Position numbers and translations under genes: made by a program. A DNA stretch of 64,000 nucleotides from Ignavibacteria bacterium (GTDB lineage: Bacteria; Bacteroidota; Ignavibacteria; Tepidaquicellales; OLB5). The notes under the pieces were generated by a model. The model did not search any database. It was not told the origin of the DNA and saw only the letters and a list, made by a program, of their open reading frames with translations. The stretch lies in the NCBI GenBank assembly GCA_041917655.1, contig JAYRXC010000003.1, positions 70,264-134,263 on the forward strand, given 5' to 3'. Shown in pieces: positions 17,194-55,082 of the stretch (positions within the stretch are counted from its first letter, which is position 1; the number at the start of each line of letters is the position of its first letter).

Positions 17194-17668
17194 GAGACGA
17201 CCCGGTGGGTAGTCTCCTGTCCAGTTTATTGGCAGCAAGCAAAGCAATTTTTGTGCCGAAAATGACAGTCAAGGCTAAATGTTACTTAATCTTGTGATTA
17301 TCTCCCCGTTGTTGGTGTTTTCACCAACAACCCTCTCCTGCTTCTATTTTTTTCCATAGTATTTGCTGATACGATTTGTAAATCCGGTCGCCTGACCGGA
17401 CTTCAGAGCGCGCTTTGCATGCTCTTGACTTCCGCAATGTGAAAGTTCACATGCACTCGAATACGGCGATTCGAGCTACATTTTGCATCCCCAACGGAAC
17501 GGAATATATTAGCGAAGGGTGCAGCCCATTGGAGGATAACTCAGCCCACGACTTCAGTCGTGGGGGTTAACTCAACACCTAAGCTCTACTAACCGTTTCA
17601 AGGGTTTAAAACCACTGAAGTGGTTCATCACATTTCATCGTTCATGTTCCCACGGATAAATCCGTGGG
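17194..17668. repeat. Array of short perfect stem-loops in an ORF-free spacer
   Basis: Hairpins read directly at these positions:
- 17194-17216: 10 bp with 1 mismatch
- 17308-17331: 10 bp, loop TTTT
- 17383-17400: 7 bp, loop GCCT
- 17437-17452
- 17456-17475: 7 bp
- 17545-17564: 8 bp, loop TTCA
- 17610-17625: 6 bp, loop TGAA
- 17649-17668: 8 bp, loop TAAA. Confidence 0.6.
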
Positions 17669-17760
17669 CTAAAAAATAATTATGTTTACAACAACTATTT
17701 CTTGTAATTTAAAGATATGGCTTTGAAAACACGTTCTTTCCAGTGTCACGGCTTCAGCAG

Positions 17761-17955
17761 GACTCTGGAAAAATGAAGACATAGCAGCTTATAGAAAGAT
17801 AAATTTCATGACCTGCGTCATTGTTTAAGGAATAGGGTAGTAGTATATTTGTCTAAATCAATTAATTCGGAAATGGGCTTCCTTAACACTTTTACAGCTT
17901 GTTTCAGAAATGAAGTCCCTTTCATTAATAACATGCTATATATATCAAAAATAAC
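17761..17955 (+). repeat. Duplicated 5' cassette, copy 1 (promoter/leader/first codons)
   Basis: Nearly identical to 19241-19437. By eye, the differences are a few substitutions plus a 2-nt indel around 17901-17911. Confidence 0.9.
17821..17851 (+). promoter_or_regulatory. Candidate promoter inside cassette copy 1 (TTG...TATATTTG), with an ATGAC-N4-GTCAT palindrome just upstream
   Basis: TATATTTG at 17844-17851 and TTG at 17821-17823. The palindrome is at 17808-17821. Confidence 0.4.
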
Positions 17956-19138
17956 GCAGAAGTTCTCTGCGCTTTTTGCATTTATTATTGCTGCATTAAC
18001 CGTTAGCGGACGCGGAGAAAAGACAACAATTTCAGGCAGTTTTAAATCTAAACCAATGATGTTAAAAATCAATTCAAGATTCATGAAACTTACCTTTTTT
18101 GCTATTTTGTCAGTTATTATGTCATTCAGTGACTCTTGCGGAGAAGACCCTGTACGTCCAAGCGAACCGAGTGATGAGATCGAAGTATTAGACAGCAGCA
18201 TCTTTGAGTGGAGCTTCATACCGGTGCCAGTATTTAACTTCTATGATACCTATATAGCTGACACAAATGCAATATTCTATATTGGTGATGGTAAAGTGTA
18301 TTTATGCGACGGGATAAACTCTGTAAGAATATATGATAATATAAACGGTTCTGCTTATACAATAGATGGATCGGGAAATGAGCAGATCTTCATTGGCGGA
18401 TATAAGCAAGGCAGCCTCAACAGTACCCCGTTTCTTAAAAAATGGAATGGGGCCATTTTTGAAGATATTTTGCTGCCGGCTGATTCCAACAACGCCGTAT
18501 GGAATATTTGTGTTGAATCTGCAACCAGTGTATGGTTCGCGGGGCTAAACGGACGGATTTATCATTACGACGGTGTTAATGTTACTGGTTACAGGATAGC
18601 CATCCCTACCACTTTCCCAAAATTTTTCAAAAAAGATAACTCAGTATATTATTATACTGAAACTAATACTCCAAATGTCGTGGCATATGTGTACAAGTTT
18701 GATGGCAGCCAGTGGCAGCATGTCAGCACAGATTCCAGCAGCCCGCCTCTTTCGTGGTCGGGTATGGGACTGCTTGAACCCGGCAGCCACATTCTAAGAA
18801 AAACACCCAAATATATCGAAGAATTTAACGGCAGCAACTGGAACCGGGTTCTAAGAACAAGCGGCTTTGAAACTTACTCAGCGGCAGGTGAAAATTTGAC
18901 GGATTTACTCACTAATGGGATTGAAGAAGGCACTACCTATTTTAGACCATTTTATTACAATGGCTCAAAGTGGTTTCGCGATACTGGGCAATATTATCCC
19001 GAAACAGAGTTTTGGTCTTTCCCCATTGAAATGAAGTATTGCAAAGGAATCTATTTTGGTTTCTATTATGCTATAACGCTAATTAGCCATAATTATATTT
19101 TGGTAGGAAGAAAAATAATCACTCCACCGGTTAAATGA
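17933..19138 (+). CDS. Beta-propeller-like lipoprotein, hypothetical (start ambiguous: 17933 or 18083)
   Basis: The cassette ATG at 17933 gives a hydrophobic N-terminus with no lipobox. A second Met at 18083 gives a classic lipoprotein signal, MKLTFFAILSVIMSFSDSC. The body has repeated blade-like segments (IFYIGDGKVYLCDG, IFIGG, VWFAGLNGRIYHYDG). Confidence 0.6.
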   Translation: MLYISKITQKFSALFAFIIAALTVSGRGEKTTISGSFKSKPMMLKINSRFMKLTFFAILSVIMSFSDSCGEDPVRPSEPSDEIEVLDSSIFEWSFIPVPVFNFYDTYIADTNAIFYIGDGKVYLCDGINSVRIYDNINGSAYTIDGSGNEQIFIGGYKQGSLNSTPFLKKWNGAIFEDILLPADSNNAVWNICVESATSVWFAGLNGRIYHYDGVNVTGYRIAIPTTFPKFFKKDNSVYYYTETNTPNVVAYVYKFDGSQWQHVSTDSSSPPLSWSGMGLLEPGSHILRKTPKYIEEFNGSNWNRVLRTSGFETYSAAGENLTDLLTNGIEEGTTYFRPFYYNGSKWFRDTGQYYPETEFWSFPIEMKYCKGIYFGFYYAITLISHNYILVGRKIITPPVK

Positions 19139-19240
19139 AGAAGGCAAACAGCATCAGTCAACGTACAAAGTGAGTGATTGAACGATTAGTATCGTTTGCG
19201 CTTGCCTATTCCGTAATTTCCAGAGTCTCTGCTCCGGAAG

Positions 19241-19437
19241 GACTCTGGAAAAATGAAGACATAGCAGCTTATAGAAAGATAAATTTCATGACCTGCGTCA
19301 TTGTTTAAGGAATAGGGTAGTAGTATATTTGTCTAAATCAATTAATTCGCAAATGGGCTTCCTTAACACTTTTACAGCTTCTTGCAGAAAAATGAAGTCC
19401 CTTTCATTAATAACATGTTATGTATATCAAAAATAAC
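19241..19437 (+). repeat. Duplicated 5' cassette, copy 2
   Basis: See copy 1. The offset between copies is 1480 nt. Both are preceded by a CCAG(A/T)GTC...GACTCTGG stem-loop. Confidence 0.9.
19301..19331 (+). promoter_or_regulatory. Candidate promoter inside cassette copy 2
   Basis: TATATTTG at 19324-19331, with the same geometry as copy 1. Confidence 0.4.
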
Positions 19438-20530
19438 TTTTGGATTCTTTTCGATTGTGGCATTGCTATTTGCTGCATTTTGTTTTTATTCATGCGGCGA
19501 TGAAACTGTTATGATCTCTAAGGAAGAATTTGATCCTCCAAGATTTAACTGGAGGGGTATTGACTTGCCATTGACCGGATACTCAGATATTTGGGCACAG
19601 GATACTTCAAACATTTATCTGATAAATTATTATGACCGCAATTTATACAGGATCAATAATGGAAATACTTCTGCTTTTAATGCCGGGAATTACGGATTGA
19701 ACCACATGAAGGGAATTAACAACAATGAAATCTACATTTTTGGTGGTGCTTCTGATGGTATAGTTACAATAATAAAATGGGTCGGAGGCAGTTTTGAATA
19801 TTATCCCACAAATATCGATTTAGGTGCACTTACTACTCAAGGAATTAAGGGTTGTGTCCGAAATTCAAACGAAATATGGATATGCTGCCAAATCGGAATT
19901 GCTCGTTTTGATGGCGTTAATTACCAATATTTTTCTTCTGATGACTCAACAATGATGCCACAAACAATTTTTTTAAGTGAGAACAATACCATCCAATATA
20001 TTTCCATGAAAATTGATGAAACTGGCATAAAACATGTGCTTTATGAATTGAACGGAGATTCGTTCGTAAAATTGTACGAATATTTTGGAGACCCTAATGT
20101 TACGAGGAGTTCAGTATTTCTTAAGGAAATGCGGGGAAACAAGTTTGGTTTAGAAATCAAACAACCCGTGGGGGCAAGCTGGAGTCTTTGTTACCTTAAT
20201 TTTCAAAACTACTCTTTATCTCCGGGTTTTTGTTACAATAGCAAGATTCAAACCTTCTCCACTGATGTCCGCTCCATAAATCCTGCAGGATCGAGTCTAA
20301 ATAACTATGTCATGTTCATAGAAGCTGAAAACGGGTTTTTTGAACACTACCGTACAGGTTTGATACATTGGGATGGGAATAAATTCAGTAAGGAGCTTGG
20401 CCTTTCCGGACTTGCCAGGCCATCTTTCAGTATGTTTCTGTTATACAACATAAATGAATCGTCTTATTTATTTCTTGAACCGCATTATTCTGATGCAACC
20501 AGCAAGTTGTATATTGGCACCAAGAAATAA
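19415..20530 (+). CDS. Beta-propeller-like lipoprotein, hypothetical (distant paralog of 17933-19138)
   Basis: The cassette ATG is followed by the lipoprotein signal MLCISKITFGFFSIVALLFAAFCFYSC. Blade-like repeats are present (IYLINYYDRNLYRINNG, IYIFGG, IWICCQIGIARFDG). Confidence 0.7.
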   Translation: MLCISKITFGFFSIVALLFAAFCFYSCGDETVMISKEEFDPPRFNWRGIDLPLTGYSDIWAQDTSNIYLINYYDRNLYRINNGNTSAFNAGNYGLNHMKGINNNEIYIFGGASDGIVTIIKWVGGSFEYYPTNIDLGALTTQGIKGCVRNSNEIWICCQIGIARFDGVNYQYFSSDDSTMMPQTIFLSENNTIQYISMKIDETGIKHVLYELNGDSFVKLYEYFGDPNVTRSSVFLKEMRGNKFGLEIKQPVGASWSLCYLNFQNYSLSPGFCYNSKIQTFSTDVRSINPAGSSLNNYVMFIEAENGFFEHYRTGLIHWDGNKFSKELGLSGLARPSFSMFLLYNINESSYLFLEPHYSDATSKLYIGTKK

Positions 20531-20716
20531 AATGATTAATCAAAAATGGGAAGAGAAGATTAGTATATAATAAGCAATACTCGATTTAGATCTAAGCTCT
20601 TCAATTTAAATAAGAAGCAGACTCAGAATCAAAGACCGCGTCCAACGTTCTTTTGCACCTAAAATCAGGGGCTTTCCTTGTCTGCTTATTCAATAATAAG
20701 CAAAAAAATAACTGCA

Positions 20717-22510
20717 ATGAATACAAAAAGTATTATCCTTTGTATTACTTTTATGGTATCAAACTTATTTACACAGCAATGGATAAATAATTACAACTTT
20801 TCGGCAAATTATCCGGGTTATAATGTTATCCAAATGCAATTTCTAAATGCAGATTTAGGTTTTACTCGCATTAGGAGCGGTAACACAATTAAGATTTTAA
20901 AAACCACAAACAGAGGTACAACATGGAATGAGATAAATTCATATAATGTTTATCCTTACGATTTGTCTGTATATAGCTATATGTACTTCATAAATGAATT
21001 AACAGGTTTTCGATCACACGTTCCTCAAGAAACAGATAAAAATATTCTGGACAAAACAACTGATGGAGGAATGACTTGGATTAGAAAGATTAATTCCACA
21101 GATATTTTTGCCGTGCAGCCCCTTATCGGCTATACTGCTGAACAGGGTTTTTACTTATTGCTTGACAATAAATATCCTGACTTTAATCTTAAGATTTACA
21201 GATCAACTGATGGATTCGAGACTAAAGAAGTTGTTTATGACCAATATCCAGGGCTTCTCAATGACAAATACAGATTTATGAATGCGAAGTCATTTGAAGA
21301 TGGACAGATAGCCGCCGTGGGATTTGTACAAAGGGGCAACAATACAGACTATTTTAGACTTATTACAAATAGTCAATCTCCATATATACCTTATATAACT
21401 ACTAATAGTGATTTTGTTAATAATTACTTAAAATTTGAATATATTTTTAAAGTAAACAACAACTTCAGTTATTTAGGTACACAGGAAAATGTTCCGGGCG
21501 GAATGTCCGGTACAAGACTGTACTTTGACCTTAATCAAAATAATTCAACTTTAATTAACTCTCAATATTCACCTAATAGAGTGGGAGGTCTTTCTTTTTC
21601 ATCAAATAATAAGGGATTCGCTTTAATTGACGACAAGGTTTACTTGACTTTAAATAGTGGGCAAAACTGGAGCCAGGATGCGATTCTGACAAGTCCTATC
21701 ACTACCGGCCAAGATATGCTTACTTCTTTTGGCGATGCTTGCTATGCAATATCCTCCCCCGGCTTTTTCCATACGCGTAAAATATCAGGCAGTTACAATA
21801 CTAATTATGATTGGCAGGCAGGTCTCAACGGTTCCATTACTGTAGATGGAGAAAACATCAGTACACCAAATACAGGCTTTTTCAGAGGCGGCACTGTTTC
21901 TTTGACCGCAAATCAATATATTGTAAATAATACTTATGACACTGCAGCAAGATTTTATTATTGGGGTGGCAATTGCAATGGCAGCATGGGATATAATTCA
22001 GGATCTTATTTAACTAACTCAGGTTCACTGATTACTGCTGACTACAAAACCAAAATGAAATCATCAACACGTGAAGCCTTGAAGAATGCTAACCAGGTAA
22101 AGATCCTGAAAGACACCAACGGCGTAATAAACCTGATCTACGAATCAATGGAGGGAATATTTTACACACGCTCAAAGAACGCAAATGGTGATTTAAAGCG
22201 CGAAGAAATTGTCAGCGGCACTGTGCCCGCAGGTTATGTAACTTATCAAAACAAAAATCCGTACATTAGCGAAATCAAATGGCCTTCGCTGGATGCCAAT
22301 ATGCAGGAAAAGAATGTTGTAGCTTGCTGGGAAAGAAAGGTCGGCAACAGTATTAAGATATATGATGCCTACAGGACTCAATCCTACCCTGAATGGCCCT
22401 GGATTAACAATGAGAAATATACAATTGAAAATGTACCTGAAGGATTTGAGGCATTTCCAAAGGTATTTGCATTGTACCCGGGTTTAATTGCTCCAACACA
22501 GTTTCTTTAA
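20717..22510 (+). CDS. Secreted BNR/Asp-box repeat protein; probably the N-terminal part of an interrupted T9SS cargo gene
   Basis: Signal peptide MNTKSIILCITFMVSNLFTQQ. Asp-box-like motifs TTNRGTTW, TTDGGMTW, STDGFET and LNSGQNW. Ends at a TAA that is in frame with the next ORF. Confidence 0.65.
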   Translation: MNTKSIILCITFMVSNLFTQQWINNYNFSANYPGYNVIQMQFLNADLGFTRIRSGNTIKILKTTNRGTTWNEINSYNVYPYDLSVYSYMYFINELTGFRSHVPQETDKNILDKTTDGGMTWIRKINSTDIFAVQPLIGYTAEQGFYLLLDNKYPDFNLKIYRSTDGFETKEVVYDQYPGLLNDKYRFMNAKSFEDGQIAAVGFVQRGNNTDYFRLITNSQSPYIPYITTNSDFVNNYLKFEYIFKVNNNFSYLGTQENVPGGMSGTRLYFDLNQNNSTLINSQYSPNRVGGLSFSSNNKGFALIDDKVYLTLNSGQNWSQDAILTSPITTGQDMLTSFGDACYAISSPGFFHTRKISGSYNTNYDWQAGLNGSITVDGENISTPNTGFFRGGTVSLTANQYIVNNTYDTAARFYYWGGNCNGSMGYNSGSYLTNSGSLITADYKTKMKSSTREALKNANQVKILKDTNGVINLIYESMEGIFYTRSKNANGDLKREEIVSGTVPAGYVTYQNKNPYISEIKWPSLDANMQEKNVVACWERKVGNSIKIYDAYRTQSYPEWPWINNEKYTIENVPEGFEAFPKVFALYPGLIAPTQFL

Positions 22511-22522
22511 GTCATCACATTT

Positions 22523-24169
22523 TTGAAACCTGATGGCAGTGACAAAAAATTAATAGCAAGGGTGTATTTGGGTGAAAACTTTATTACAGAATATGTATTA
22601 ATAGGTCCTTCAAATATCCAGGAATATGCTATAGCTTCAATTGCAAATGTAATTGGTGAAGATAAGTACTTTAATCTCAACATTGCATATCGTAAGGACC
22701 AACTGATAGGATATAAACGGGTTGAAATTGGAAAAAACATCAGCTTTAACTCATATTTTTGCAATGTAATGGCAGGCTACCCAAACATTTCATCAGAAAA
22801 TTCACGCTGGAGAGCTTCATTGGATATAGCTTTAAAAAACACTTCAAATAGCACAAGCACATTCAATATGCAGCCGGTAATAACATACCAGGGAAGGTAC
22901 GATACAAGAATTATAGTCGATAACGAGGATGGTTCGCCTTCAGAAATAACAGGTTCCTACTATCCAATCTATGTAAGGGAAAGGCTTTCGGATGGCACCT
23001 GGAACAATTTTATTTCATACAATCCGGGCGTAAACATAATACAATTTACACCAAGTGTGGAAGGTTCCAAGCATAAAAATTCATATATGTTAAGTTATGC
23101 ACAGGGTTCCACCGAACCTTACAAATTCATTCAAAAAATTCCTGAATGGAATGGGGTAGTTAATACCCATGGGTTTTTCTGTAGCCCCGGCCATACTTGG
23201 AGTACTGACGCAAAGTTAATCAAGGGAGGGTTAATTAACGATTATTCTGCAAACCAGGACCTTGTTGCACTATTTCCCGATCCGAATCGGAATGGTGTTT
23301 TTACATTAGAAAAACGGCTTTTTACCATAACTAATGGCGCAATAGGCGATGGCAATTATGATGAGGTCATCGGTATTATTGAAGACAATGATGTAAAATA
23401 TTCTTTCAATCTGGGTAATATTATAGTTAATGGTTCAAGCATAGGTTTTCCAGGAGCTCTTGATAACACGATAGAAAATTCTAATGAGCTCAGCAATAAT
23501 ATGGTATCGCAAACTTTTCTACTAAACGAAAATGACACACTTGTAATAGGCAGAAACGCATCGTACTGTTTAGAGACAACAGAATCCGAATTTCGGGAAA
23601 TTGAATATTGGGTTAAGCTAATGAACAAAAGCAAAAATGAAATGCACCGTCTCCTTGTTCACGATACACTCCACTTCATGGACTCATTGCAATTCGAATT
23701 TCTTGAAGGATATATTATTAGGAATATATCAGCCGAAGGTGACAGTTTCTATGTTCAGCTTGAGATTGATACTGTTGATGGTAATTTTGGTATTGGCGGC
23801 GGAATTGGCGGAGATGAAGGTTCAGGCGACAATAATACATTAAAACGCAAGATATTCTGGGAAAATGATAATATGGTTACCAATAACAGTAATAATATTC
23901 CTACTACATTCAATCTGTATCAGAATTTCCCAAACCCGTTCAATCCATCTACTTTGATAAAATATGATTTGCCTAAAGACGTAAATGTGACAATCAGAAT
24001 TTATGACTTATTGGGGAGAGAAGTTGCTACGCTGGTAAATAATGAATTTAAGAATGCAGGAAGATATGAATTAGCATGGAATGCTTTGAACTATGCTACC
24101 GGAGTCTATATCTACAGAATAGAAGCCGGAGACTTTGTATCAACCAAAAAAATGGTGCTGATAAAATAA
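22523..24169 (+). CDS. T9SS C-terminal-domain protein with no signal peptide; probably the C-terminal part of the same interrupted gene
   Basis: Same frame as 20717-22510. It ends with a canonical Por/T9SS sorting domain: YQNFPNPFNPSTLIKYDLP...IYDLLGREV...GVYIYRIEAGDFVSTKKMVLIK. Confidence 0.65.
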   Translation: MKPDGSDKKLIARVYLGENFITEYVLIGPSNIQEYAIASIANVIGEDKYFNLNIAYRKDQLIGYKRVEIGKNISFNSYFCNVMAGYPNISSENSRWRASLDIALKNTSNSTSTFNMQPVITYQGRYDTRIIVDNEDGSPSEITGSYYPIYVRERLSDGTWNNFISYNPGVNIIQFTPSVEGSKHKNSYMLSYAQGSTEPYKFIQKIPEWNGVVNTHGFFCSPGHTWSTDAKLIKGGLINDYSANQDLVALFPDPNRNGVFTLEKRLFTITNGAIGDGNYDEVIGIIEDNDVKYSFNLGNIIVNGSSIGFPGALDNTIENSNELSNNMVSQTFLLNENDTLVIGRNASYCLETTESEFREIEYWVKLMNKSKNEMHRLLVHDTLHFMDSLQFEFLEGYIIRNISAEGDSFYVQLEIDTVDGNFGIGGGIGGDEGSGDNNTLKRKIFWENDNMVTNNSNNIPTTFNLYQNFPNPFNPSTLIKYDLPKDVNVTIRIYDLLGREVATLVNNEFKNAGRYELAWNALNYATGVYIYRIEAGDFVSTKKMVLIK

Positions 24170-45621: not shown

Positions 45622-45767
45622 GAATGCAAAACTACTGAGTAAATGTTTCACCGTCGTGTACTAAGGAGCTGAAAATTCCTTATATTTTGGGCTTTAATAA
45701 TTCAGAGTAATTTGTTAAATTTGTAAAATAGCAAATATGACGTTTTTTTGATATATTTGCGCAGCAC

Positions 45768-45849
45768 GGAGAGCTCGCATAATGGTATTGCAGCGGTCTT
45801 GAAAACCGCCGGGCGCAAGCCTGTGGGGGTTCGAGTCCCTCGCTCTCCG
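45768..45849 (+). tRNA. tRNA-Ser (anticodon UGA), class II
   Basis: Hand-folded. Acceptor GGAGAGC/GCTCTCC, 3-bp D stem, anticodon arm GCGGT-CTTGAAA-ACCGC, 15-nt variable arm with a GCAA loop, T arm GGGGG-TTCGAGT-CCCTC, discriminator G. TATATTTG lies 9 nt upstream. Confidence 0.85.
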
Positions 45850-45903
45850 CAAAACCATTCAATACTACAAGGGGTTGTTTACCCCTTGTTTTCTTTAACA
45901 CTC

Positions 45904-45990
45904 GGAGAGGTGCAAGAGTGGTTGAATTGGCCACCCTGGAAAGGTGGTATACCGGTAACGGTATCGTGGGTTCGAATCCCACCTTCTCCG
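45904..45990 (+). tRNA. tRNA-Ser (anticodon GGA), class II
   Basis: Hand-folded. Acceptor GGAGAGG/CTTCTCC (one G-U pair), anticodon arm CCACC-CTGGAAA-GGTGG, 18-nt variable arm TACCG-GTAA-CGGTA, T arm GTGGG-TTCGAAT-CCCAC, discriminator G. Confidence 0.9.
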
Positions 45991-46058
45991 CTTTGAATTT
46001 CAGAATGATCGTGGGTTCTCCCAAAGGGACTCTCGAAGATTCCTTTGGAACTTCGGAG

Positions 46059-46174: not shown

Positions 46175-49100
46175 CTACTTAAGTATTACCAGCTTCTTTA
46201 CATCCGTAAAGTCACCGGATTCCATTCTGTAGAAATATACACCGCTTGCAAATTGAGATGCGTCAAATACTGCTTCGTAGGTACCCGCAGTGCGCATTTC
46301 ATTTACAAGAGTCTTTACTTCCCTGCCCAGAATATCATAAACAACCAGCTTCACGAGCGATTGCCGCGGAACGGAATACCTGATATTCGTTACAGGGTTA
46401 AACGGATTTGGATAATTCTGTCCCAACTCAAACTTTACAGGAATCTGGTTATTGTTTACAGCAAGTATTGCATTATATATAATATTCAGGCAATATCTTT
46501 CAACATGTCCTGTATCGCTTCCTGCCTGATCGTTCACTTTAAGTATCCATTTACCGTGAACTTCAGCTCCATTATAAACATTGAGCGGCGATTCCGGCTT
46601 GTACGATCCTGTAAACGGCGCCGTTCCTGTTGAAATTGAGGCAGAAGCCGAATCATCGAACACAGTATTTATATAATTCTCACCGCTTGAACCGTGCCTG
46701 TTTGAAAGAACGACTTCAACACCTGCAGGCGAAGTTATGCTGAAAGTAATATCTCCGTCATAAGTATGGAGAAGTGTTTCCATTTTGAAATTTAGATCTA
46801 CAATTGTTCCGTACGGCACAACCATCAAGGTATCATAAGAAGTCTGGTTATCTCTTATTGGCATGTACGTATCTTTACAGAACATCTGTGCAGCCTGGTC
46901 AGTAATAAGGAACCCGTAGTAACCTGCAGCAGGCATCCTTCCAATATTATGGTTAGAAGAATTATCTACCGCCTTTACCATGTAGAATATTGAATCACCG
47001 GGTGCAACTTCAGCATTCAGTGAGTTAAACAAAGCGCTGTAATTGCTGCCTGACGTTAAATTGAGCCTGAATTTTTTGATAACCGAAGGGGTATTCTTAT
47101 ACCACTCAACCCATACACTATCAACGCCAATATTATCCGTTACACTGCTGTTAACAGTAGATGGCCACATTGGCTGACCTGTATTTCCAAGCTGTGTGTG
47201 CACTATGACAGGCGCGGTTGCGTCTACAGATGCGGAAAAACTGAAATATCCTGTGGGTGCGTCAGGAGGCAGAACAGTCACTCTCCCTGCCATATCACAG
47301 GTCTTCAGATAGTATTTATATAATGCAGGAGAACCGTTGCCCGGAATGCTTGCGCTCCAGTTATTACCTGATGAATTTGTGAGCGAAACACTATCTGCAA
47401 AAGTACTTCCGCGTGTCCAGAAGAGCTTGGTCTTTGCAGGATCAATATTTGATCCCGCAGGTGTTATCAAACAATTCACCGTGTATGGTCCGGCCAGGTT
47501 TTCGGTATTCGGCAGGCATGCATGCGAAATTACCGGGCCGTATGGTGCTTCGTAAAGTGACGGGTCACCGAGGCAGTTATACATTTCGAGGTATCTTCTC
47601 ATGTCAGTTGTAACACTGCCATAATGAAGTACGAGGTAGATCTTTGCCTGGACGAACATTGGGGCAGTCTTCTTCAATCCATCAGTGAACATTGCCCTGA
47701 AAAGCCTTCTTTCCAGGATATCATCTTCATCCCAGAATGAGTTTACGGATGAACCCCAGAACACTGAGCCGCCTTTTTGCCTGCGGATCCATGTTTCGCC
47801 AAAACACTCTGAATTCTGAAATTGACCTGTTAAGCACGCAAATGAATACACGAACGGGAAGTAGGTATTGTTCAATGAATTCACCTGCGACTGCGATAGC
47901 GGCGGGCCGTCTGCCCAGCTTGTAGTGCTGCCATGACCTGAATAGACCGCGAATACCTGGTTGGCATTAAGCGCATCAATAAGCTGCTGAGTAGTCGAGC
48001 CGTAGGTATAGGTATACAGCTTAATGTTAGCGAATGGCGGCGTAGTAAAGAAACTATCTACAACAAAGTTGTGAGTGCCTTCAGTAATGGCATGGTTATC
48101 GGTAGAAGCCATCCAAACATTCTTCTTCGGCAATGCGCCAATTGAGCTTTCCATATAAATGGTCTTATTTATTATGTTGCTAAGCTCAGACGAATTTGAA
48201 ACCGAAAAACGCCCGATGAAAGCATCCGCAAAAGCATCTCCGCCTTCAAGAAGAGTATAGTTCAGGTCTGTATGAGGGTTATCCGATCCGATGCCTGTCC
48301 ACTCGGGTAACATATTTATATCACCGGCAAGAAGTATAAACTCAGGCCGAGTTGAAATATTGTTGTACCTCTGCTGAATGTAGTTAAGAATAGCAGTTGT
48401 AGTTGTGCCTGTAGTACCTGTATTAACCATCAATACATTGTAGCCCATGCTTGATTTGTAGGAGGCGAATGGTCCCATTGCAGCCTCATATTCAGGCGGC
48501 GTAATGATGAGGTAATTATTAGTATTGGTGTATGTAATACACCCAGGGTTGACAGCAGATGCATTAAACATTTCCCTGAAAGAGCCGCCAACTGAACTGT
48601 AAGATGGCATACCTGCAGGAAGATCGATACTGATTCGCGCCGTGCGTGTTACAAACAGCTTTCCGCCTGCGGGATCATACCTGAACGGGTAAATTGTAAC
48701 CATAACTGCCTTAACACCTGCAATTACGATAGGCTCTGAGATCTTTACTAATGGATTGAAAATACTGCCGCTGGTTAAGTAGTAATCCTTATTAACAGTA
48801 AAGGGCCTGTCCTTTAGCTGTCCGGATTTCTCCCAGGGCGCCTGGGTTGGGAATATTTTTCTCTGCTGAAGTTTTTCTTCAACAGCCTGGTCTTTAACAA
48901 CAAAACCGGGTGATGATTCTGCTTTATTTATTACAAGGATGAAAGTGAGCTGAGGCAACATTGGAAGGCCTTCTTCGGGAGTGATACCATAGTTATTTAA
49001 GCTTATGATATCATATTGCTCTCCCTGCCTGGTTACAGTTTCTGTATTGTAACCCGGAAGGCTGTATTCTATTTCGTAGCCGCTTGTGGAATTTGTCAGC

Positions 49101-49192
49101 CTCAGGCCGTCTAATCCCTGCGAATATGAAACAGAACCGGCCGCCGTACATAGCAATAAAATCGCAATGACGGCCGCACTATAGCGTTTCAT
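46175..49192 (-). CDS. Peptidase C25 (gingipain-like cysteine peptidase) with a proprotein-convertase P-domain-like module and a T9SS C-terminal sorting domain
   Basis: Signal peptide present. C25-type blocks PEFILLAGDINMLPEW, VYSGHGSTTSW (catalytic His region) and FVYSFACLTGQF (catalytic Cys region). P-domain-like LLHTYDGDITFSITSPAGVEVVLSN. CTD NYPNPFNPVTNIRYSVP...GVYFYRMESGDFTDVKKLVILK. Confidence 0.85.
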   Translation of the reverse strand: MKRYSAAVIAILLLCTAAGSVSYSQGLDGLRLTNSTSGYEIEYSLPGYNTETVTRQGEQYDIISLNNYGITPEEGLPMLPQLTFILVINKAESSPGFVVKDQAVEEKLQQRKIFPTQAPWEKSGQLKDRPFTVNKDYYLTSGSIFNPLVKISEPIVIAGVKAVMVTIYPFRYDPAGGKLFVTRTARISIDLPAGMPSYSSVGGSFREMFNASAVNPGCITYTNTNNYLIITPPEYEAAMGPFASYKSSMGYNVLMVNTGTTGTTTTAILNYIQQRYNNISTRPEFILLAGDINMLPEWTGIGSDNPHTDLNYTLLEGGDAFADAFIGRFSVSNSSELSNIINKTIYMESSIGALPKKNVWMASTDNHAITEGTHNFVVDSFFTTPPFANIKLYTYTYGSTTQQLIDALNANQVFAVYSGHGSTTSWADGPPLSQSQVNSLNNTYFPFVYSFACLTGQFQNSECFGETWIRRQKGGSVFWGSSVNSFWDEDDILERRLFRAMFTDGLKKTAPMFVQAKIYLVLHYGSVTTDMRRYLEMYNCLGDPSLYEAPYGPVISHACLPNTENLAGPYTVNCLITPAGSNIDPAKTKLFWTRGSTFADSVSLTNSSGNNWSASIPGNGSPALYKYYLKTCDMAGRVTVLPPDAPTGYFSFSASVDATAPVIVHTQLGNTGQPMWPSTVNSSVTDNIGVDSVWVEWYKNTPSVIKKFRLNLTSGSNYSALFNSLNAEVAPGDSIFYMVKAVDNSSNHNIGRMPAAGYYGFLITDQAAQMFCKDTYMPIRDNQTSYDTLMVVPYGTIVDLNFKMETLLHTYDGDITFSITSPAGVEVVLSNRHGSSGENYINTVFDDSASASISTGTAPFTGSYKPESPLNVYNGAEVHGKWILKVNDQAGSDTGHVERYCLNIIYNAILAVNNNQIPVKFELGQNYPNPFNPVTNIRYSVPRQSLVKLVVYDILGREVKTLVNEMRTAGTYEAVFDASQFASGVYFYRMESGDFTDVKKLVILK

Positions 49193-49526: not shown

Positions 49527-51338
49527 ATGAATCTGCCTGAAGGATATAACGGGAAGCTGTATTCTTTAATTGAAGAAGCACAAAGGATCAAAGTTAATGA
49601 GCCTCAAAAAGCACTTGAGCAGGCAAATTTTGTTTATGTTCAGGCATTAAAATCTGCAGATGAGGAACTTGAAGCTTTGTGCCTCTACACACTGGGAGTG
49701 TGTAACGAACTGCTGGCAAACTACCCCCAGGCAATGACATTCCTTTCCGAAGCGATCAAGCTCTCTCAGCATCTGGGCAATAAAAGGGTCATGGGTGATT
49801 CACTCAACTGTGTTGGGATAATCCATGACAACCTCAACAATTATTCCAATGCATTAAAAGCTTATTTCAGGGCATTGAAGCTCTATGAAGAGCTTAAAGA
49901 CAACAAAAAGATCGCGATTGTACTTTCCAATATTGGCCTTATATATACAAATATCAAAGATTACCGCAACGCCCTGAAATTCTATTCCCAGGCACTCGAC
50001 CTGGCCGAAGAGGAAAATGACAGTGAATCATTGCTTGTGACTAATATTAATATCGGCTTAACACATACTCTTCTGGGAAATTTTGATGAAGCATTAAAGT
50101 TTTTATATGATGCTCTTGATTTTGCCGCGAGAAATAATGACAGGCGGCGAAGTTCCATTACTCTTGATCATATTGCAGAGACAAACATTAAGCTGGAAAA
50201 GAACGATGAGGCTTATCGGCTTTTTGAAGAAAGCCGTAAGATCAAGGAAGAGCTTGATGATAAACGCGGACTTGTGAAGGTATTGGGTACAATTGGCCAT
50301 ATGAACCTTGTTGAAAACAAGGTTGAAGAAGCGAAAGCCAACCTCGAAAAGGCACTTGAAATTGCAGACAGGCTCGGGATGAAAAGATCGATCCACGAGC
50401 TGCATAAAATGCTGAGCGAATCTTATGAAAAAATGGGAGATGCAGAAAATGCGCTAATGCATCTAAAGATCGCATACAGGAAAGAAATTGAGCTGCTAAA
50501 TGAGGAGGCTGAGCTGAGGGCAAAAAACATCTCAACGCAGCTGGAGATTGAACAGGCACAAAAAGAAGCAGAGATCCAGAGGCTGAAAAATATTGAACTT
50601 GCGCAGGCCCTTGAAGATGTAAAAAAACTCAATGTAAACCTGAAAGAGCTAAATGACGAGAAAAATGAGTTCATGGCAATTGCAGTCCATGACCTGAAAA
50701 ACCCGCTGCAGAATATTTTATCTACAGCCAGAATAATGAAAAGGTCCGATGATTTGCCTAAAGAAGAGCTCGATGAGTTCACGTCTAATATTGTAAGTCA
50801 AACAGACAGGATGTTCAACATCATAAAGAAACTGCTTGATCACAATGCAATCGACCAGGGAGAGTTGAAAATTAAGGAATCGAATTTTGATGTTAATTCC
50901 CTTTGCGATGAGCTTGCCGAAAACTTCAGAGAAGAAGCCGAAAGAAAATTTCTCGAGATCAAGCTGGATAAATTTCCAGAAGAGCTGAATGTAAGAACTG
51001 ATAAGGTCATTCTTTATGAGATACTGCAGAATCTGATTTCAAACGCGATAAAATTTTCGCCACAGCACAAACATATCTTTTTAGGTACTTATGCAGATGA
51101 AGATTCAGTACGTATAGAAGTCAGAGATGAGGGCCCCGGATTCAGCGACGCTGATAAGTCTAAAATGTTCAACAAATTTGCACGTTTGAGCGCAAAACCA
51201 ACCGGCAATGAACATTCAACCGGCCTGGGTCTTTCTATAGTTAAGAAATTATGCGAATTGGCAGGGGCAAGGCTGAAGCTCGAATCTGTTGAGTCTCAAG
51301 GCGCTAAATTCATTATCTCTCTCAAAAGACAGAATTAA
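49527..51338 (+). CDS. Cytoplasmic TPR-repeat sensor histidine kinase (paralog 1 of 3)
   Basis: No TM segments. TPR array of about 300 aa, then a coiled coil. H-box FMAIAVHDLKNPL, N-box NLISNAIKFSP, G1 RDEGPGF, G2 STGLGLSIVKKL. Confidence 0.85.
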   Translation: MNLPEGYNGKLYSLIEEAQRIKVNEPQKALEQANFVYVQALKSADEELEALCLYTLGVCNELLANYPQAMTFLSEAIKLSQHLGNKRVMGDSLNCVGIIHDNLNNYSNALKAYFRALKLYEELKDNKKIAIVLSNIGLIYTNIKDYRNALKFYSQALDLAEEENDSESLLVTNINIGLTHTLLGNFDEALKFLYDALDFAARNNDRRRSSITLDHIAETNIKLEKNDEAYRLFEESRKIKEELDDKRGLVKVLGTIGHMNLVENKVEEAKANLEKALEIADRLGMKRSIHELHKMLSESYEKMGDAENALMHLKIAYRKEIELLNEEAELRAKNISTQLEIEQAQKEAEIQRLKNIELAQALEDVKKLNVNLKELNDEKNEFMAIAVHDLKNPLQNILSTARIMKRSDDLPKEELDEFTSNIVSQTDRMFNIIKKLLDHNAIDQGELKIKESNFDVNSLCDELAENFREEAERKFLEIKLDKFPEELNVRTDKVILYEILQNLISNAIKFSPQHKHIFLGTYADEDSVRIEVRDEGPGFSDADKSKMFNKFARLSAKPTGNEHSTGLGLSIVKKLCELAGARLKLESVESQGAKFIISLKRQN

Positions 51339-51418
51339 AGAACGGAAATAACAGCAGTTTTAATCTAACTTGTTTACGTTATTCCAATTCTTTCAAAGCC
51401 TTATAAATTACACTTAGA

Positions 51419-53188
51419 ATGAAACCAAATCTTGCAGAAATCACCAATAAAGCAGAAGAAATGAGGGAAAGCAACCCTTCAGGATCTTTAGAATTGTATC
51501 AGGAAGCCCTTAAACTTGCGAAATCAAGTAAGAAGGACAGAGAGGTCGTGGAAATCCTGTTTAATACAGGGGTCGTATACCACAACTTGGCAAACCACAG
51601 CGCCGCCAAAACTCATTTCTTCGAAGCTCTTGAAAATCCTTACATTAACCAGGATATGTTCCTCAAAGCAAACATCCTGCGCTGCATGGCGGTACAATAT
51701 GTATGTACTAACATGCTGCAGGAAGCTATTGACTACCTTTACAGCAGTGAAAGAGTGAGCGTTGAATGCGGATATGATGAGAATATCCACATGATAGAAT
51801 CAACTATGGGATCGGTGTATATTCAGCTGAAAATGTTCGATAAAGCGCTGGAGCATGAATTGAGATCTCTTGAAATTGCAGAAAAACTCGACTCTGGCTC
51901 AATGAGAAGTTATTCGTACCTGGGAATTGGCTCATGTTATTACCTTTTAAATAATCTTGATGATGCTGAGAAATTCCTCTTAAGAGTCTTTGAAAACGAA
52001 ACGACTGAATTCACAAAGGCGAACACTTACTATTATTTATCAAAGCTGAACTATGATAAGAGGAATTTCAGGGAAGCAATGCGCACAGCAGAAAAGGGAT
52101 ATGATATAGCAATAGCAAACCATATCCAGGACTACACCGCATTGTGCCTTGCGATGAAGGGAAATATTTACCTGGCGGAAGGCAATCATGAAGCGGCGCT
52201 TCGCGATCTTGAAGAAGCAATTGGACTTGCAGAAACTTTTGAGAACAAAAGAATTTTTTTCAGGCTGTACAGGTCGCTGATAAAATTATATGACAAAACC
52301 GGCGACTACAAGAGCAAGGCAGAAGCCTACTCAAAGCTATATGAGTATCACGTTGAGTATCTTGAAAACCAATCCAAGCTGAAAATAAAACAGCTCAACA
52401 GCGAGCACCTTGTTGAGAAAGCAAAAGACGAAGCCGAGATCGAAAGACTTAAAAATGTTGAACTGCGCAAAGCATTGGAAAAGGTGAACCGCCTTAACGG
52501 AGAGCTTGCGGAACTGAACTCAGAAAAAAATGAATTCATGGCAGTAGCGGTTCATGATCTTAAGAACCCGCTTCAGAATATTTTATCTACAGCAAGGATG
52601 ATAAAAAGATCAAACCCGGGTAAGGAAAATACCGAGTTCGCGGAAAACATTATTCAGCAGACTGACAGGATGTTCAGCCTGATAAGTAAACTGCTTAGCC
52701 ACAATGCAGTCGAAGAAGGAAAAATCCGAATAAGCAGAAGCGAATTTAAGGCTGAATCTATCTGCAGGGATATAATGAATGACTACCGCGAAGCTGCGGC
52801 GAGAAAGAAAGTTGAGCTTAGGTTCGAAAACGGCTGCAATGGGCACAAGCTGTTCACTGATTATGATATTTTGTTTGAGATCATGGGCAACATTGTATCC
52901 AATGCCGTAAAATTCTCTCCGCAGAATACGAAAGTACTGCTTAAGACTTTTCAGGATGCAGGGAATGTTTTGTTTGAGGTTACAGACGAGGGCCCTGGAT
53001 TTAATGATGAAGATAAATCACGGTTATTCAGGAAATTTTCAAAATTGAGCGCAAAGCCAACCATGGGTGAAAGCTCGACTGGGCTTGGACTTTCAATAGT
53101 TAAGAAGCTGTGTAAGCTGATTGATGCCGAAATACTGCTTGAGAGCAGTCCGGGAAAAGGATCAAGTTTCCGTGTAAAAGTTGGTTAA
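51419..53188 (+). CDS. Cytoplasmic TPR-repeat sensor histidine kinase (paralog 2 of 3)
   Basis: Same architecture. H-box FMAVAVHDLKNPLQNILSTARMIKRS, and transmitter blocks NIVSNAVKFSP, TDEGPGF and STGLGLSIVKKL. Confidence 0.85.
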   Translation: MKPNLAEITNKAEEMRESNPSGSLELYQEALKLAKSSKKDREVVEILFNTGVVYHNLANHSAAKTHFFEALENPYINQDMFLKANILRCMAVQYVCTNMLQEAIDYLYSSERVSVECGYDENIHMIESTMGSVYIQLKMFDKALEHELRSLEIAEKLDSGSMRSYSYLGIGSCYYLLNNLDDAEKFLLRVFENETTEFTKANTYYYLSKLNYDKRNFREAMRTAEKGYDIAIANHIQDYTALCLAMKGNIYLAEGNHEAALRDLEEAIGLAETFENKRIFFRLYRSLIKLYDKTGDYKSKAEAYSKLYEYHVEYLENQSKLKIKQLNSEHLVEKAKDEAEIERLKNVELRKALEKVNRLNGELAELNSEKNEFMAVAVHDLKNPLQNILSTARMIKRSNPGKENTEFAENIIQQTDRMFSLISKLLSHNAVEEGKIRISRSEFKAESICRDIMNDYREAAARKKVELRFENGCNGHKLFTDYDILFEIMGNIVSNAVKFSPQNTKVLLKTFQDAGNVLFEVTDEGPGFNDEDKSRLFRKFSKLSAKPTMGESSTGLGLSIVKKLCKLIDAEILLESSPGKGSSFRVKVG

Positions 53189-53303
53189 GTAAAGGAGAAT
53201 TGAATACCTTTTTCATTGTATATTCCCCCAAAAATTTACTATTTTGTGCACAATTCTTAATTCCTTTTAAAACTATGCAGAGCTTATCAGTACATTACTC
53301 TTT

Positions 53304-55082
53304 ATGAACAGCATTCGTAAACAAATTGATGATGCACTACTTGTAAGGCAAACCAACCCCGGAGAAGCCCTCCGTATATTTGAAAATGCACTCAGGGATG
53401 CGATTGAAGCAAAGGATGAGGAAAACATCACCGCTGCTTATTTTAACATAGCGATAGCTTACCTTAATCTATGCAATTATAAGGAATCGCTCAGGTATTT
53501 TGTTGCAGCGTCAGAAACACCTTATGCCGCAAGAGATAAAAAACTATATGCGGAAATTCTCAGGGGATTTGGTTCAAACTATTCCCGCACCTATAACTAT
53601 AAAGAAGCTCTCCGGTATTACTCGCTTTCTGAACAGGTTAGTATCGAATCAGGAAATACTCATAATCTTTACCATACCTACATGGCATTCGGCTCTTTGT
53701 TTAACAGGCTGAAGCTAATCGAGAAAACACTTGAATACTCCCTTAAGGCGCTTGCAATAGCCCGTGATATGAACGATAAGAGCGATATCCAGTATTCGCT
53801 TATGTCTATTGGCGCATGTCATTACCAGCTTCATAATTTTCCGGAAGGCGAAAAGTATCTGCTGCAATCCCTGGAATACTCGTCGAACCATTTCGCAGAA
53901 GCAAATGCGTATCATTTTTTATCACTCATCTTTTATGAGAAAGGAAATATCGCCGAATCAAAAACGCTTTCAAACCGCCAGGTTGAAATATGCAGGCAGA
54001 ATAATTATCCGGAGTTTGAAGCCCTTGCTTACAGGTTCATGGGCGATGCGATGATGAAAGAAGGCAGCATTGACGCGGCTTTGGAATACTTTAACAAAGC
54101 TCTTTCACTTCTGGAACAAATAGGGGAGAAACTGATAAAATTCACAGTCAAAAAAAGAATGATAGAAGCTTATGAGCAAATGGGCGGAAACGAAAAGACC
54201 ACAGAACTTTACAGTTCTCTTTACAGCGAACATGTTGAACACCTGGAGCAGAACATAATGTTCAGGATCGAACAGATCAATGTTCAGCAGGAAACCGAGA
54301 AGATCAAAGGTGAAATAGAAGCAGAAAGAGAAACCAATAAGAAGCTCAAACAGGCAATTGATGAAGTTAACGCTTTGAACATTAAGCTGCAGAATCTGCA
54401 TGATGAAAAAAATGAACTCATGGGCATTCTTGCACATGACCTGAAGAATCCACTTCAGAGTATATATTCAGCAGGAAGGCTTTTAGAAAACTATAAAGAT
54501 AATATCAGCATACTGGATGAGCTTGGCTCAAACATCAAGACTCAATCCGAAAGGATGTTCAGACTCATAAACAGGCTCCTTGATTACAGGGCTATAGAAG
54601 AAGGACAAGTCATCGCCGGAATTACTCAAACAGATCCACGTGCAATTTGCAAAAGGATAGTTGAAGACTTCACTCCTATTGCCGCCCAGAAGTCAATACG
54701 GCTCGAATACTCAATCGAAGCTGAAAATACTCTCATCAAAACAGACGCAGAACTTCTGTACCAGGTGGTAGAAAACCTGACTTCCAATGCTATTAAGTTC
54801 TCGCCGTTTGAGAAAACGATATATATAAGATGCAGGAAAAAAGGAAACTATTTCCTAATTGAGATTGAAGACCAGGGTCCCGGTTTTACGGAAAAGGATA
54901 AGCAGAAGCTTTTTTCAAGCTTTGCGAAGCTGAGTGCGCAGCCGACTGGAAGTGAACACTCTACCGGCCTTGGCCTGGCGATCGCAAAAAAACTTTGTGA
55001 TATGATAGGCGCGAGGCTTTCACTTACGTCATCGCCGGGTGAAGGCGCCAAATTTACGATCACCCTGGAGAAAGTAAACTGA
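53304..55082 (+). CDS. Cytoplasmic TPR-repeat sensor histidine kinase (paralog 3 of 3)
   Basis: Same architecture. H-box LMGILAHDLKNPLQSI, and transmitter blocks NLTSNAIKFSP, EDQGPGF and STGLGLAIAKKL. Confidence 0.85.
   Translation: MNSIRKQIDDALLVRQTNPGEALRIFENALRDAIEAKDEENITAAYFNIAIAYLNLCNYKESLRYFVAASETPYAARDKKLYAEILRGFGSNYSRTYNYKEALRYYSLSEQVSIESGNTHNLYHTYMAFGSLFNRLKLIEKTLEYSLKALAIARDMNDKSDIQYSLMSIGACHYQLHNFPEGEKYLLQSLEYSSNHFAEANAYHFLSLIFYEKGNIAESKTLSNRQVEICRQNNYPEFEALAYRFMGDAMMKEGSIDAALEYFNKALSLLEQIGEKLIKFTVKKRMIEAYEQMGGNEKTTELYSSLYSEHVEHLEQNIMFRIEQINVQQETEKIKGEIEAERETNKKLKQAIDEVNALNIKLQNLHDEKNELMGILAHDLKNPLQSIYSAGRLLENYKDNISILDELGSNIKTQSERMFRLINRLLDYRAIEEGQVIAGITQTDPRAICKRIVEDFTPIAAQKSIRLEYSIEAENTLIKTDAELLYQVVENLTSNAIKFSPFEKTIYIRCRKKGNYFLIEIEDQGPGFTEKDKQKLFSSFAKLSAQPTGSEHSTGLGLAIAKKLCDMIGARLSLTSSPGEGAKFTITLEKVN

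Follow-up and report, generated by a model that had tools for sequence, protein, structure and literature searches.

In the 64,000-nucleotide stretch of Ignavibacteria bacterium DNA analysed here (contig JAYRXC010000003.1, positions 70,264 to 134,263; hereafter the window), two genes for divergent lipoproteins, B and A in that order, lie side by side on the forward strand, and each is preceded by a copy of the same ~195-bp cassette of predicted promoter, leader and start codon. The copies are in direct orientation, 1.48 kb apart, with gene B between them. A repeat search of the window paired 17732-17910 with 19212-19390 (94% identity) and 17908-17955 with 19390-19437 (96%), and blastn of the window against itself aligned 17737-17997 with 19217-19479 at 89% over 263 nt. 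Counted column by column, the core of the repeat (17761-17955 against 19241-19437) is 96.4% identical, with five substitutions and one 2-nt indel, and its longest identical run is 109 bases. Identity falls to 75% in the 24 nt upstream (17737-17760) and to 62% in the 42 nt downstream (17956-17997), a contrast between core and flanks with a Fisher p of 1e-10, and the 3' edge of the core at 17955/17956 is very sharp, with seven consecutive mismatches. The proteins encoded behind the two copies are 24% identical over 239 amino acids, and the gene bodies share no nucleotide similarity. An earlier note on this DNA had described a near-identical promoter, leader and start-codon module before two very divergent paralogs; this description is borne out, and bodies at 24% against a core at 96.4% rule out a plain tandem duplication.

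The same note had named an assembly artefact among the outcomes that would undo its claim. Since the window possibly comes from a metagenome assembly and repeats are prone to misassembly, a stretch might have been duplicated or collapsed, or two strains joined in a chimeric contig. However, a Logan contig (L021; 1410 nt, found in at least 20 samples) matches window positions 17871-19278 at 99.4%, spanning gene B and both cassette junctions, and contradicts this explanation. It ends inside both cassette copies, starting directly after the sole mismatch in the first half of copy 1 and stopping 38 nt into the identical part of copy 2. De Bruijn assemblers break at such repeats, so these breakpoints indicate a true repeat. 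The protein encoded on L021 (P0024) is 99% identical to the 401-amino acid reading of gene B. The copies, moreover, differ at five sites and one indel, their flanks differ, and cassette-plus-gene units occur in many other assemblies. The direct repeat is confirmed as real, and an artefact is barely credible.

Genes A and B belong to a previously uncharacterised family of beta-propeller lipoproteins that travels with a large protein sorted by the type IX secretion system (T9SS). No Pfam domain was found in either gene. Among 5.8 billion clusters, gene A had 23 homologues and gene B six at E<=1e-3, and each gene has a separate set of orthologues at 50-89% identity. With a profile of the two families, 79 representatives were recovered at E<=1e-30, most of them ~350 amino acids long with a lipoprotein signal, and pairwise comparison distinguished at least four classes of body, A to D, with 22-32% identity between classes. 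The AlphaFold model of gene A (predicted local distance difference test score 86.8) has an N-terminal helix followed by ~28 beta-strands and is modelled as a 7-bladed propeller; its matches in the PDB, at a template modelling score of ~0.55, are generic propellers with seven blades (Vgb lyase, the EPTP repeats of LGI1, lectins and the BtuG surface lipoproteins of Bacteroides). As the earlier note had it, the cassette ATG of copy 2 leads directly into a lipoprotein signal (..FYSC/GDE), and that of copy 1 leads into a hydrophobic stretch lacking Cys, after which comes a second signal with its Cys (MMLKINSRFMKLTFFAILSVIMSFSDSC; Met 18056, 18059 or 18083). Gene B is in frame with the cassette ATG at 17933. 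In a protein alignment the signal of gene A pairs with the second signal of gene B (from Met 18083), not with the cassette-encoded hydrophobic stretch.

Both copies carry the elements that had been read in them by eye: a box TATATTTG at 17844 and 19324, a 14-bp palindrome ATGACCTGCGTCAT at 17808-17821 and 19288-19301 that in each case abuts a TTG, and the first eight codons, ML(Y/C)ISKIT. In Bacteroidetes the promoter consensus consists of TTG at -33 and TAnnTTTG (TAHHTTTG) at -7 (PMC6847099), and Flavobacterium has the G of its -7 box at position -5 (PMC6847099). Both copies read TTG-N20-TATATTTG, which agrees with a -7 TAnnTTTG lacking G at the n positions and a TTG ~17-23 nt upstream of it; the -7 box and TATATTTGT are invariant in 11 of 11 aligned loci. 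A related promoter motif has been reported for Chlorobi. Across the window we counted 86 occurrences of TAnnTTTG against 66 expected, 2.3 times denser in intergenic DNA, and the TTG-spacer-box layout recurs upstream of tetR/paa, efp and other genes, which we take as evidence that -33/-7 promoters of the Bacteroidetes type are probably used in this lineage. A sigma-70 promoter scan gave scores no better than shuffles, as expected in this lineage, and no other TAnnTTTG promoter was found between the cassette and the gene B start codon. We know of no promoter mapping in Ignavibacteria, whose promoters, leaders and lipoprotein families are, to our knowledge, almost unstudied.

Under the rule that places G at -5, transcription would start near 17856 in copy 1 and near 19336 in copy 2, which gives leaders of 77 and 79 nt and sets the centre of the palindrome at about -41.5. 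This dyad (ATGAC-N4-GTCAT) overlaps the -33 element; its half-sites TGAC/GTCA are conserved across the 11 loci, with the symmetric variant TGAT/ATCA in L008, and its 4-nt spacer varies. Class II activators of the CRP/FNR type use position -41.5. With its conserved half-sites the dyad is a candidate class II site, a placement that depends on the predicted start, and it is a putative site probably bound by a dimeric regulator.

The leader (~78 nt) is A/U-rich and is conserved in sequence, not in structure. Its folding z-score is +0.45, the consensus fold has an energy of -7.25 kcal/mol with a covariation term of -0.1, and no Rfam match was obtained inside the cassette even at E<=1; a structured leader RNA or riboswitch was rejected on these results. 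Further conserved blocks in the 11-sequence alignment are GCTTCC, AAAAATGAAGTCCCTTTC, ATGCTATATACATCAAAAATAA and the TTG beside the dyad. The leader has A at -3 and -6, positions at which A is favoured for initiation without a Shine-Dalgarno sequence (PMC6847099), and two conserved upstream AUGs, which are under-represented near Bacteroidetes start codons (PMC6847099). An upstream open reading frame (ORF) of 27 codons from a conserved ATGGGC is open in all loci; its variable sites fall on codon positions 1/2/3 in the numbers 6/10/7 and frame-changing indels are present, so a leader-encoded small protein was rejected for want of a coding signal. The cassette thus resembles the sigma-A(Bfr) promoters of Bacteroidetes in its -33/-7 elements, its predicted leadered mRNA, its A at -3 and -6 and its unstructured A/U-rich initiation region, and departs from their leaders in its Ignavibacteria host and its two conserved upstream AUGs. 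The copy-1 leader has three A residues at 17905-17907, where copy 2 and L021 have five, and the difference between window and L021 marks the 2-nt indel as a strain polymorphism; the shorter run puts the conserved upstream ATG at 17873 in frame with the cassette ATG and gene B. In L002 (4400-4445), before the closest class A orthologue (P0001, 89%), the usual ATG has become ATA, and a nearby ATG together with a 1-nt deletion in an A-run restores the frame (MYIKIT..), two compensating changes.

The BLASTN search for more copies that the earlier note had proposed found none further in the window, where an nhmmer profile likewise detected no third copy, and several in related contigs. By BLAST and nhmmer, the cassette stands before class A genes in L002, L003-5, L006, L008/9 and L022, before class B genes in L021 and L017 (P0027) as well as the window, and before a class D gene in L007 (P0023). 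The sole case outside the family is L019, where it precedes a 412-amino acid T9SS-sorted propeller gene of another family, and incomplete cassettes lie at the ends of contigs L011 and L020. No cassette precedes the B orthologues of L012 and L013, nor the A orthologues of L001 and L018. A scan with a degenerate pattern gave one true match among public genome contigs (L011, an Ignavibacteria metagenome-assembled genome) and one chance match (L010, a Rheinheimera metagenome-assembled genome), two matches among metagenome contigs (L019 and L020) and no cassette among viral contigs; a profile search with the 46-residue N-terminal peptide encoded by the cassette returned no matches. The suggestion that the module is portable gains support from this comparison, since the unrelated T9SS gene of L019 and bodies of three classes (A, B and D) all lie behind it.

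The way in which module and body are joined varies among the loci. L017 has an in-frame fusion of the signal peptide at the lipobox, the part shared by L007 extends through ..EEFDPPR, and both L019 and copy 1 of the window have a decayed signal-peptide stub, behind which lies a gene that has a start codon and signal to itself. Mapping of the gene B junction against the orthologue in L012 was uninformative, since homology there begins only at the mature protein. The N-terminus type MLYxSKI was found in classes A, B and D, its sister type MIFxxKNI in classes A, B and C. P0037 and P0023, two class D orthologues with 63% identity, do not have the same signal peptide, that of P0023 being of the A type. 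These types and the difference between P0037 and P0023 suggest concerted evolution of the 5' ends inside a lineage, with bodies that remain distinct. A cassette of a second lineage, considered for L013 (B) and L018 (A), was rejected because only the -7 box and ~27 nt at the start codon are alike, with no BLAST-level match. In L019 (6940-7130, minus strand) a different 2-nt deletion joins an upstream ATG to the stub, producing a 54-codon ORF with an intact lipobox (..LSFSSCG..), the TGA of which overlaps the ATG of the T9SS propeller gene (ATGA) as is typical of translational coupling.

The degree of identity within the window is not matched between genomes. Against the cassettes of other genomes, either window copy reaches 81-88%, and because even the closest relatives show only this level, conservation alone cannot give 96%. 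Copy 1 is also a mosaic. Over promoter, leader and eight codons it has 96% identity with copy 2, against 81% with L019 and 84-85% with L002 and L003. Over the signal-peptide part its identity is 55% with copy 2 and 74% with L019, whereas copy 2 there reaches 86-88% with L002, L003 and L007. Beyond codon 8, the residues of copy 1 agree with L019 at 14 of 26 positions, with class D protein P0037, whose signal peptide is intact, at 11 of 29 and with copy 2 at 6 of 29. L019 has the same stub, frameshifted, and in the window the tail of the stub comprises ~10 former mature codons plus a spacer. At three of the five sites at which the window copies differ, copy 2 has the base of the other genomes (the remaining two are mixed), which fits copy 2 as the donor. 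Recent gene conversion, which had been among the suggestions made for this locus, is the best reading of these patterns.

An old duplication, in which purifying selection alone, with no recombination, would have kept the upstream region alike since genes A and B split, could account for the conservation of the module across lineages, for the invariance of TATATTTGT and several leader blocks in 11 loci, and for an N-terminus type that is lineage-specific and common to several body classes. It does not account for copies 96% identical within one genome against 81-88% between genomes, nor for a copy 1 whose 5' and 3' parts differ in their nearest relatives and whose identity falls abruptly at both edges, and we consider it very improbable.

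The sharp edge at 17955/17956 and the cassette before an unrelated T9SS gene in L019 might instead suggest a mobile promoter, that is, a self-contained ~195-bp element freshly inserted before a gene B that had no such upstream region. In all close relatives a REP-like hairpin doublet is found 90-150 nt ahead of the cassette, and in its upstream identity the window pair fits the published description of putative mobile promoters, which requires at least 80% identity over at least 50 nt between -150 and -50 upstream of dissimilar coding sequences (Matus-Garcia, Nijveen and van Passel 2012; PMC3575422). Such elements may extend into the coding region, and their spreading route is unknown (PMC3575422). 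Here 17783-17883 and 19265-19365 have one difference (17870, G/C) and are ~99% identical, and the bodies are 24% identical in amino acids, yet the two genes are distant paralogs that share eight codons and part of the signal region. Against an insertion, homology of 62-75% continues past both core edges, and the copy-1 stub comes from another cassette lineage than copy 2, which a fresh insertion of copy 2 would not yield. The edges bear neither terminal inverted repeats nor a target-site duplication, no viral contig has the cassette, and no transposase, recombinase or invertase was found among the ORFs covered by our Pfam scans (5.4-55 kb of the window). The residual flank homology and the shared decayed stub suggest that the stub was already in place and that only promoter and leader were overwritten. 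Of the earlier view that the cassette was pasted before a pre-existing gene, the part that gives gene B a signal of its own stands, and a fresh insertion is unlikely. In contrast to putative mobile promoters, this cassette would owe its spread to homologous recombination among family members, with no autonomous element involved.

We therefore favour, as probable, a reading in which the repeat is a family 5' module, native in copy 2 and gene-converted onto an older stub before gene B. It would provide for expression and export in a family of paralogous Ignavibacteria genes for 7-bladed beta-propeller lipoproteins, and would comprise a Bacteroidetes-type sigma-A promoter, the dyad, the ~78-nt unstructured leader and the start codon with the first eight codons, to which intact copies add a lipoprotein signal peptide. 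The 5' stub of a former paralog, with a P0037-like (class D) signal peptide, would have come to lie before gene B, and ~195 bp of it would recently have been overwritten from copy 2 by a non-reciprocal homologous exchange that ended at codon 8. The stub would supply the only recognisable promoter of gene B, which keeps its own start codon and signal peptide. Genes A and B, placed under the same promoter, operator and leader, would then be expected to respond to the same signal. The earlier account was largely right, the main correction being that copy 1 appears to be an older stub overwritten by gene conversion.

Several points weigh against this reading. The link of the stub to L019 and P0037 draws on only ~70 nt or 26-29 residues, and a search of the spacer (17998-18055) and of L019 for class D 3'-end remnants gave noise-level matches only; the deletion that would have left the stub is presumed rather than shown. 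Elsewhere in the window the dyad shows no enrichment, and no gene for a CRP/FNR-type regulator was found among the scanned ORFs. Within this genome, copies were counted over the 64 kb of the window. Across genomes, conservation of the cassette is similar to, or somewhat above, that of coding bodies and other intergenic DNA, a level that does not demonstrate special selection on the leader. Transcription start and promoter activity, as well as translation from the cassette ATG of copy 1, are predictions from the DNA.

The lipoprotein array that precedes the ~1150-amino acid T9SS gene varies between genomes, with a single A gene in L001, L008 and L018, a single B gene in L012, B followed by A in the window, and A, C, B in L006. 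This variation fits gain and loss through recombination between family members. Deletion or amplification between the two repeats is plausible, and no such variant of this genome was seen. In L006 (10001-13350) the classes A, C and B lie head to tail with gaps of 22 and 106 nt and one cassette, and the second gene has a signal peptide similar to that of the first, an operon-like version of the array.

Direct repeats 1.48 kb apart around gene B, related genomes with A only, B only or A-C-B at the same place, junctions that vary by case and an imperfect inverted repeat around the copy-1 promoter and stub could also be read as a variation switch, in which the module is the substrate of a programmed recombination that swaps, deletes or amplifies lipoprotein bodies, for example against phages. 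Such systems are known from Mycoplasma, where the vsp genes of M. bovis, the vlp genes of M. hyorhinis and the vsa genes of M. pulmonis have a conserved 5' untranslated region and prolipoprotein signal before divergent tandem bodies, and the shared 5' ends are recombination substrates. The vsp and vsa systems have a dedicated recombinase and recombination sites, vlp has a poly-A promoter spacer, and the coding regions are repetitive. Unlike these, the locus studied here has none of a recombinase, recombination sites, a poly-A spacer or repetitive coding regions in the scanned ORFs and at the cassette edges. No site-specific recombinase or invertase occurs in the scanned ORFs, neither gene contains phase-variation tracts (the tandem-repeat program TRF returned two trivial 20-nt rows), the A3/A5 run of the leader is too short for a slippage tract, and the same arrangement was assembled in at least 20 samples. 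The inverted repeat is likely due to chance since it shares a TCATGA palindrome, and we judge a switch of this kind distinctly improbable.

The 17-nt inverted repeat itself (15 of 17 positions; 17795-17811 and 18081-18097) brackets the promoter, leader and stub of copy 1. Its right arm covers Met 18083 of gene B, it is absent from copy 2, and, both arms holding TCATGA, it is probably a chance match; an invertible promoter, as in the phase-variable systems of Bacteroides, was rejected as a candidate, this weak repeat in copy 1 being all that was found.

Another close parallel to the module is offered by the erp (OspE/F-related) genes of Borrelia burgdorferi, in which one promoter, leader and localisation sequence, the 'upstream homology box' (UHB), has been joined to many bodies by recombination (PMC10016077). 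As in erp, where promoter/operator, leader peptide and first mature residues are common to divergent or unrelated bodies, a single module stands here before class A, B and D and T9SS bodies, and mosaics are found both in the two parts of copy 1 and in P0023 and P0037. The erp genes lie at allelic sites of several cp32 prophage plasmids, under the control of BpaB, BpuR and EbfC, whereas the genes studied here are chromosomal tandem neighbours among housekeeping genes, encode beta-propellers and have a Bacteroidetes-type promoter, with no sequence relationship to erp. The mechanism is already familiar in the evolution of bacterial surface-protein families; here it is well delimited, in an unstudied phylum, and gives a clean case of concerted evolution that is limited to the regulatory and export end of a gene, a sharply bounded ~195 bp. 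Its candidate promoter, operator and leader might be usable as an expression module. If the module co-regulates or shuffles surface proteins, environmental bacteria would join the host-associated spirochaetes and mycoplasmas from which this strategy is mainly known. We also entertain, as a rather doubtful extension, that the cassette is an actively propagated regulatory unit of Ignavibacteria, with the dyad at -41.5 as operator and a sequence-specific leader recognised by a protein or small RNA, and that it has been captured repeatedly by surface-protein genes, both propeller lipoproteins of several classes and T9SS cargo, into one regulon, with its repeats mediating gain, loss and swapping of bodies without a dedicated recombinase. 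If true, this would amount to recombination-based surface variation in natural populations of a free-living, non-pathogenic phylum.

Table 1. Coordinates of the features at the cassette locus (window numbering)
Feature	Position	Strand	Description
Hairpin before copy 1	17737..17771	+	TTTCCAGTGTC-N13-GACTCTGGAAA; dG -15.5, z -3.1
Cassette copy 1	17761..17955	+	Near-identical core, putative gene-conversion tract
14-bp dyad ATGACCTGCGTCAT	17808..17821	.	Candidate dimeric-regulator site; centre ~-41.5 from predicted transcription start
Predicted promoter, Bacteroidetes/FCB (Fibrobacteres-Chlorobi-Bacteroidetes) type	17821..17851	+	TTG-N20-TATATTTG (-33 and -7 elements); motif match, conservation
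Predicted leader of copy 1	17856..17932	+	77 nt; sequence conserved, not structured
Cassette start codon and first 8 codons	17933..17956	+	MLYISKIT
Putative decayed 5' stub of former paralog	17957..18055	+	Signal h-region kept, lipobox Cys to Arg (TGC to CGC)
Gene B, class B beta-propeller lipoprotein	18056..19138	+	Own signal peptide, Met 18056/18059/18083, Cys at ..SDSC
Hairpin before copy 2	19217..19251	+	Perfect 11-bp stem; dG -18.8, z -4.3
Cassette copy 2, putative native 5' module of gene A	19241..19437	+	Dyad 19288-19301, TTG 19301, TATATTTG 19324-19331, predicted transcription start near 19336, 79-nt leader, ATG 19415
Gene A, class A lipoprotein, modelled 7-bladed beta-propeller	19415..20530	+	Signal ..FYSC/GDE
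T9SS-sorted gene, ~1150 amino acids	20717..24169	+	Downstream of lipoprotein array, as in related genomes

Each copy is preceded by a hairpin with the same stem and a different loop, TTTCCAG(T/A)GTC-N13-GACTCTGGAAA, as had been noted from the sequence. The 3' arm of the copy-1 hairpin forms the first part of the near-identical tract, and the copy-2 hairpin begins 79 nt past the gene B stop codon. A terminator-like hairpin found in copy 1 only (17955-17971; CGCAGA-AGTTC-TCTGCG followed by CTTTTTGCATTT; dG -10.4, z -2.6) lies exactly at the 3' edge of the near-identical tract, 22 nt past the cassette ATG, and could be predicted to attenuate transcription into gene B. Farther upstream, at 17542-17673, lies the doublet of the REP (repetitive extragenic palindrome)/REPIN-like type, two hairpins of the same stem (CCCACGACTTCAGTCGTGGG and CCCACGGATAAATCCGTGGG) ~104 nt apart with a z-score of -3.5. 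It recurs in L001 (15298-15417 and 16560-16718, once inverted), L002 (4058-4189) and L003 (2567-2697), and was further seen in L011, L019 and L022; against the Rfam family Acido-Lenti-1 it gave sub-threshold scores of 29 and 23 bits (gathering score 37).

The array is flanked upstream by genes for MutS, a deaminase, MatE, TetR and PaaABCD and downstream by the T9SS-sorted protein, a peptidase, PGK and GAPDH. The T9SS gene is split by an in-frame TAA (22508-22510) into ORFs 20678-22510 and 22523-24169, and it is unbroken in L001 (1149 amino acids), L012 (1153) and L018 (1139); the TAA may reflect a pseudogene, a sequencing error or a strain-specific nonsense mutation. Elsewhere in the window, three tandem paralogous genes for TPR-histidine kinases (603, 589 and 592 amino acids) occupy 49527-55082, and beside them on the minus strand (46175-49192) lies a gene for a T9SS-sorted, gingipain-like C25 peptidase. 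Two adjoining tRNA-Ser genes (anticodons TGA and GGA) lie at 45768-45991, with a TATATTTG box at 45752, just upstream of the first.

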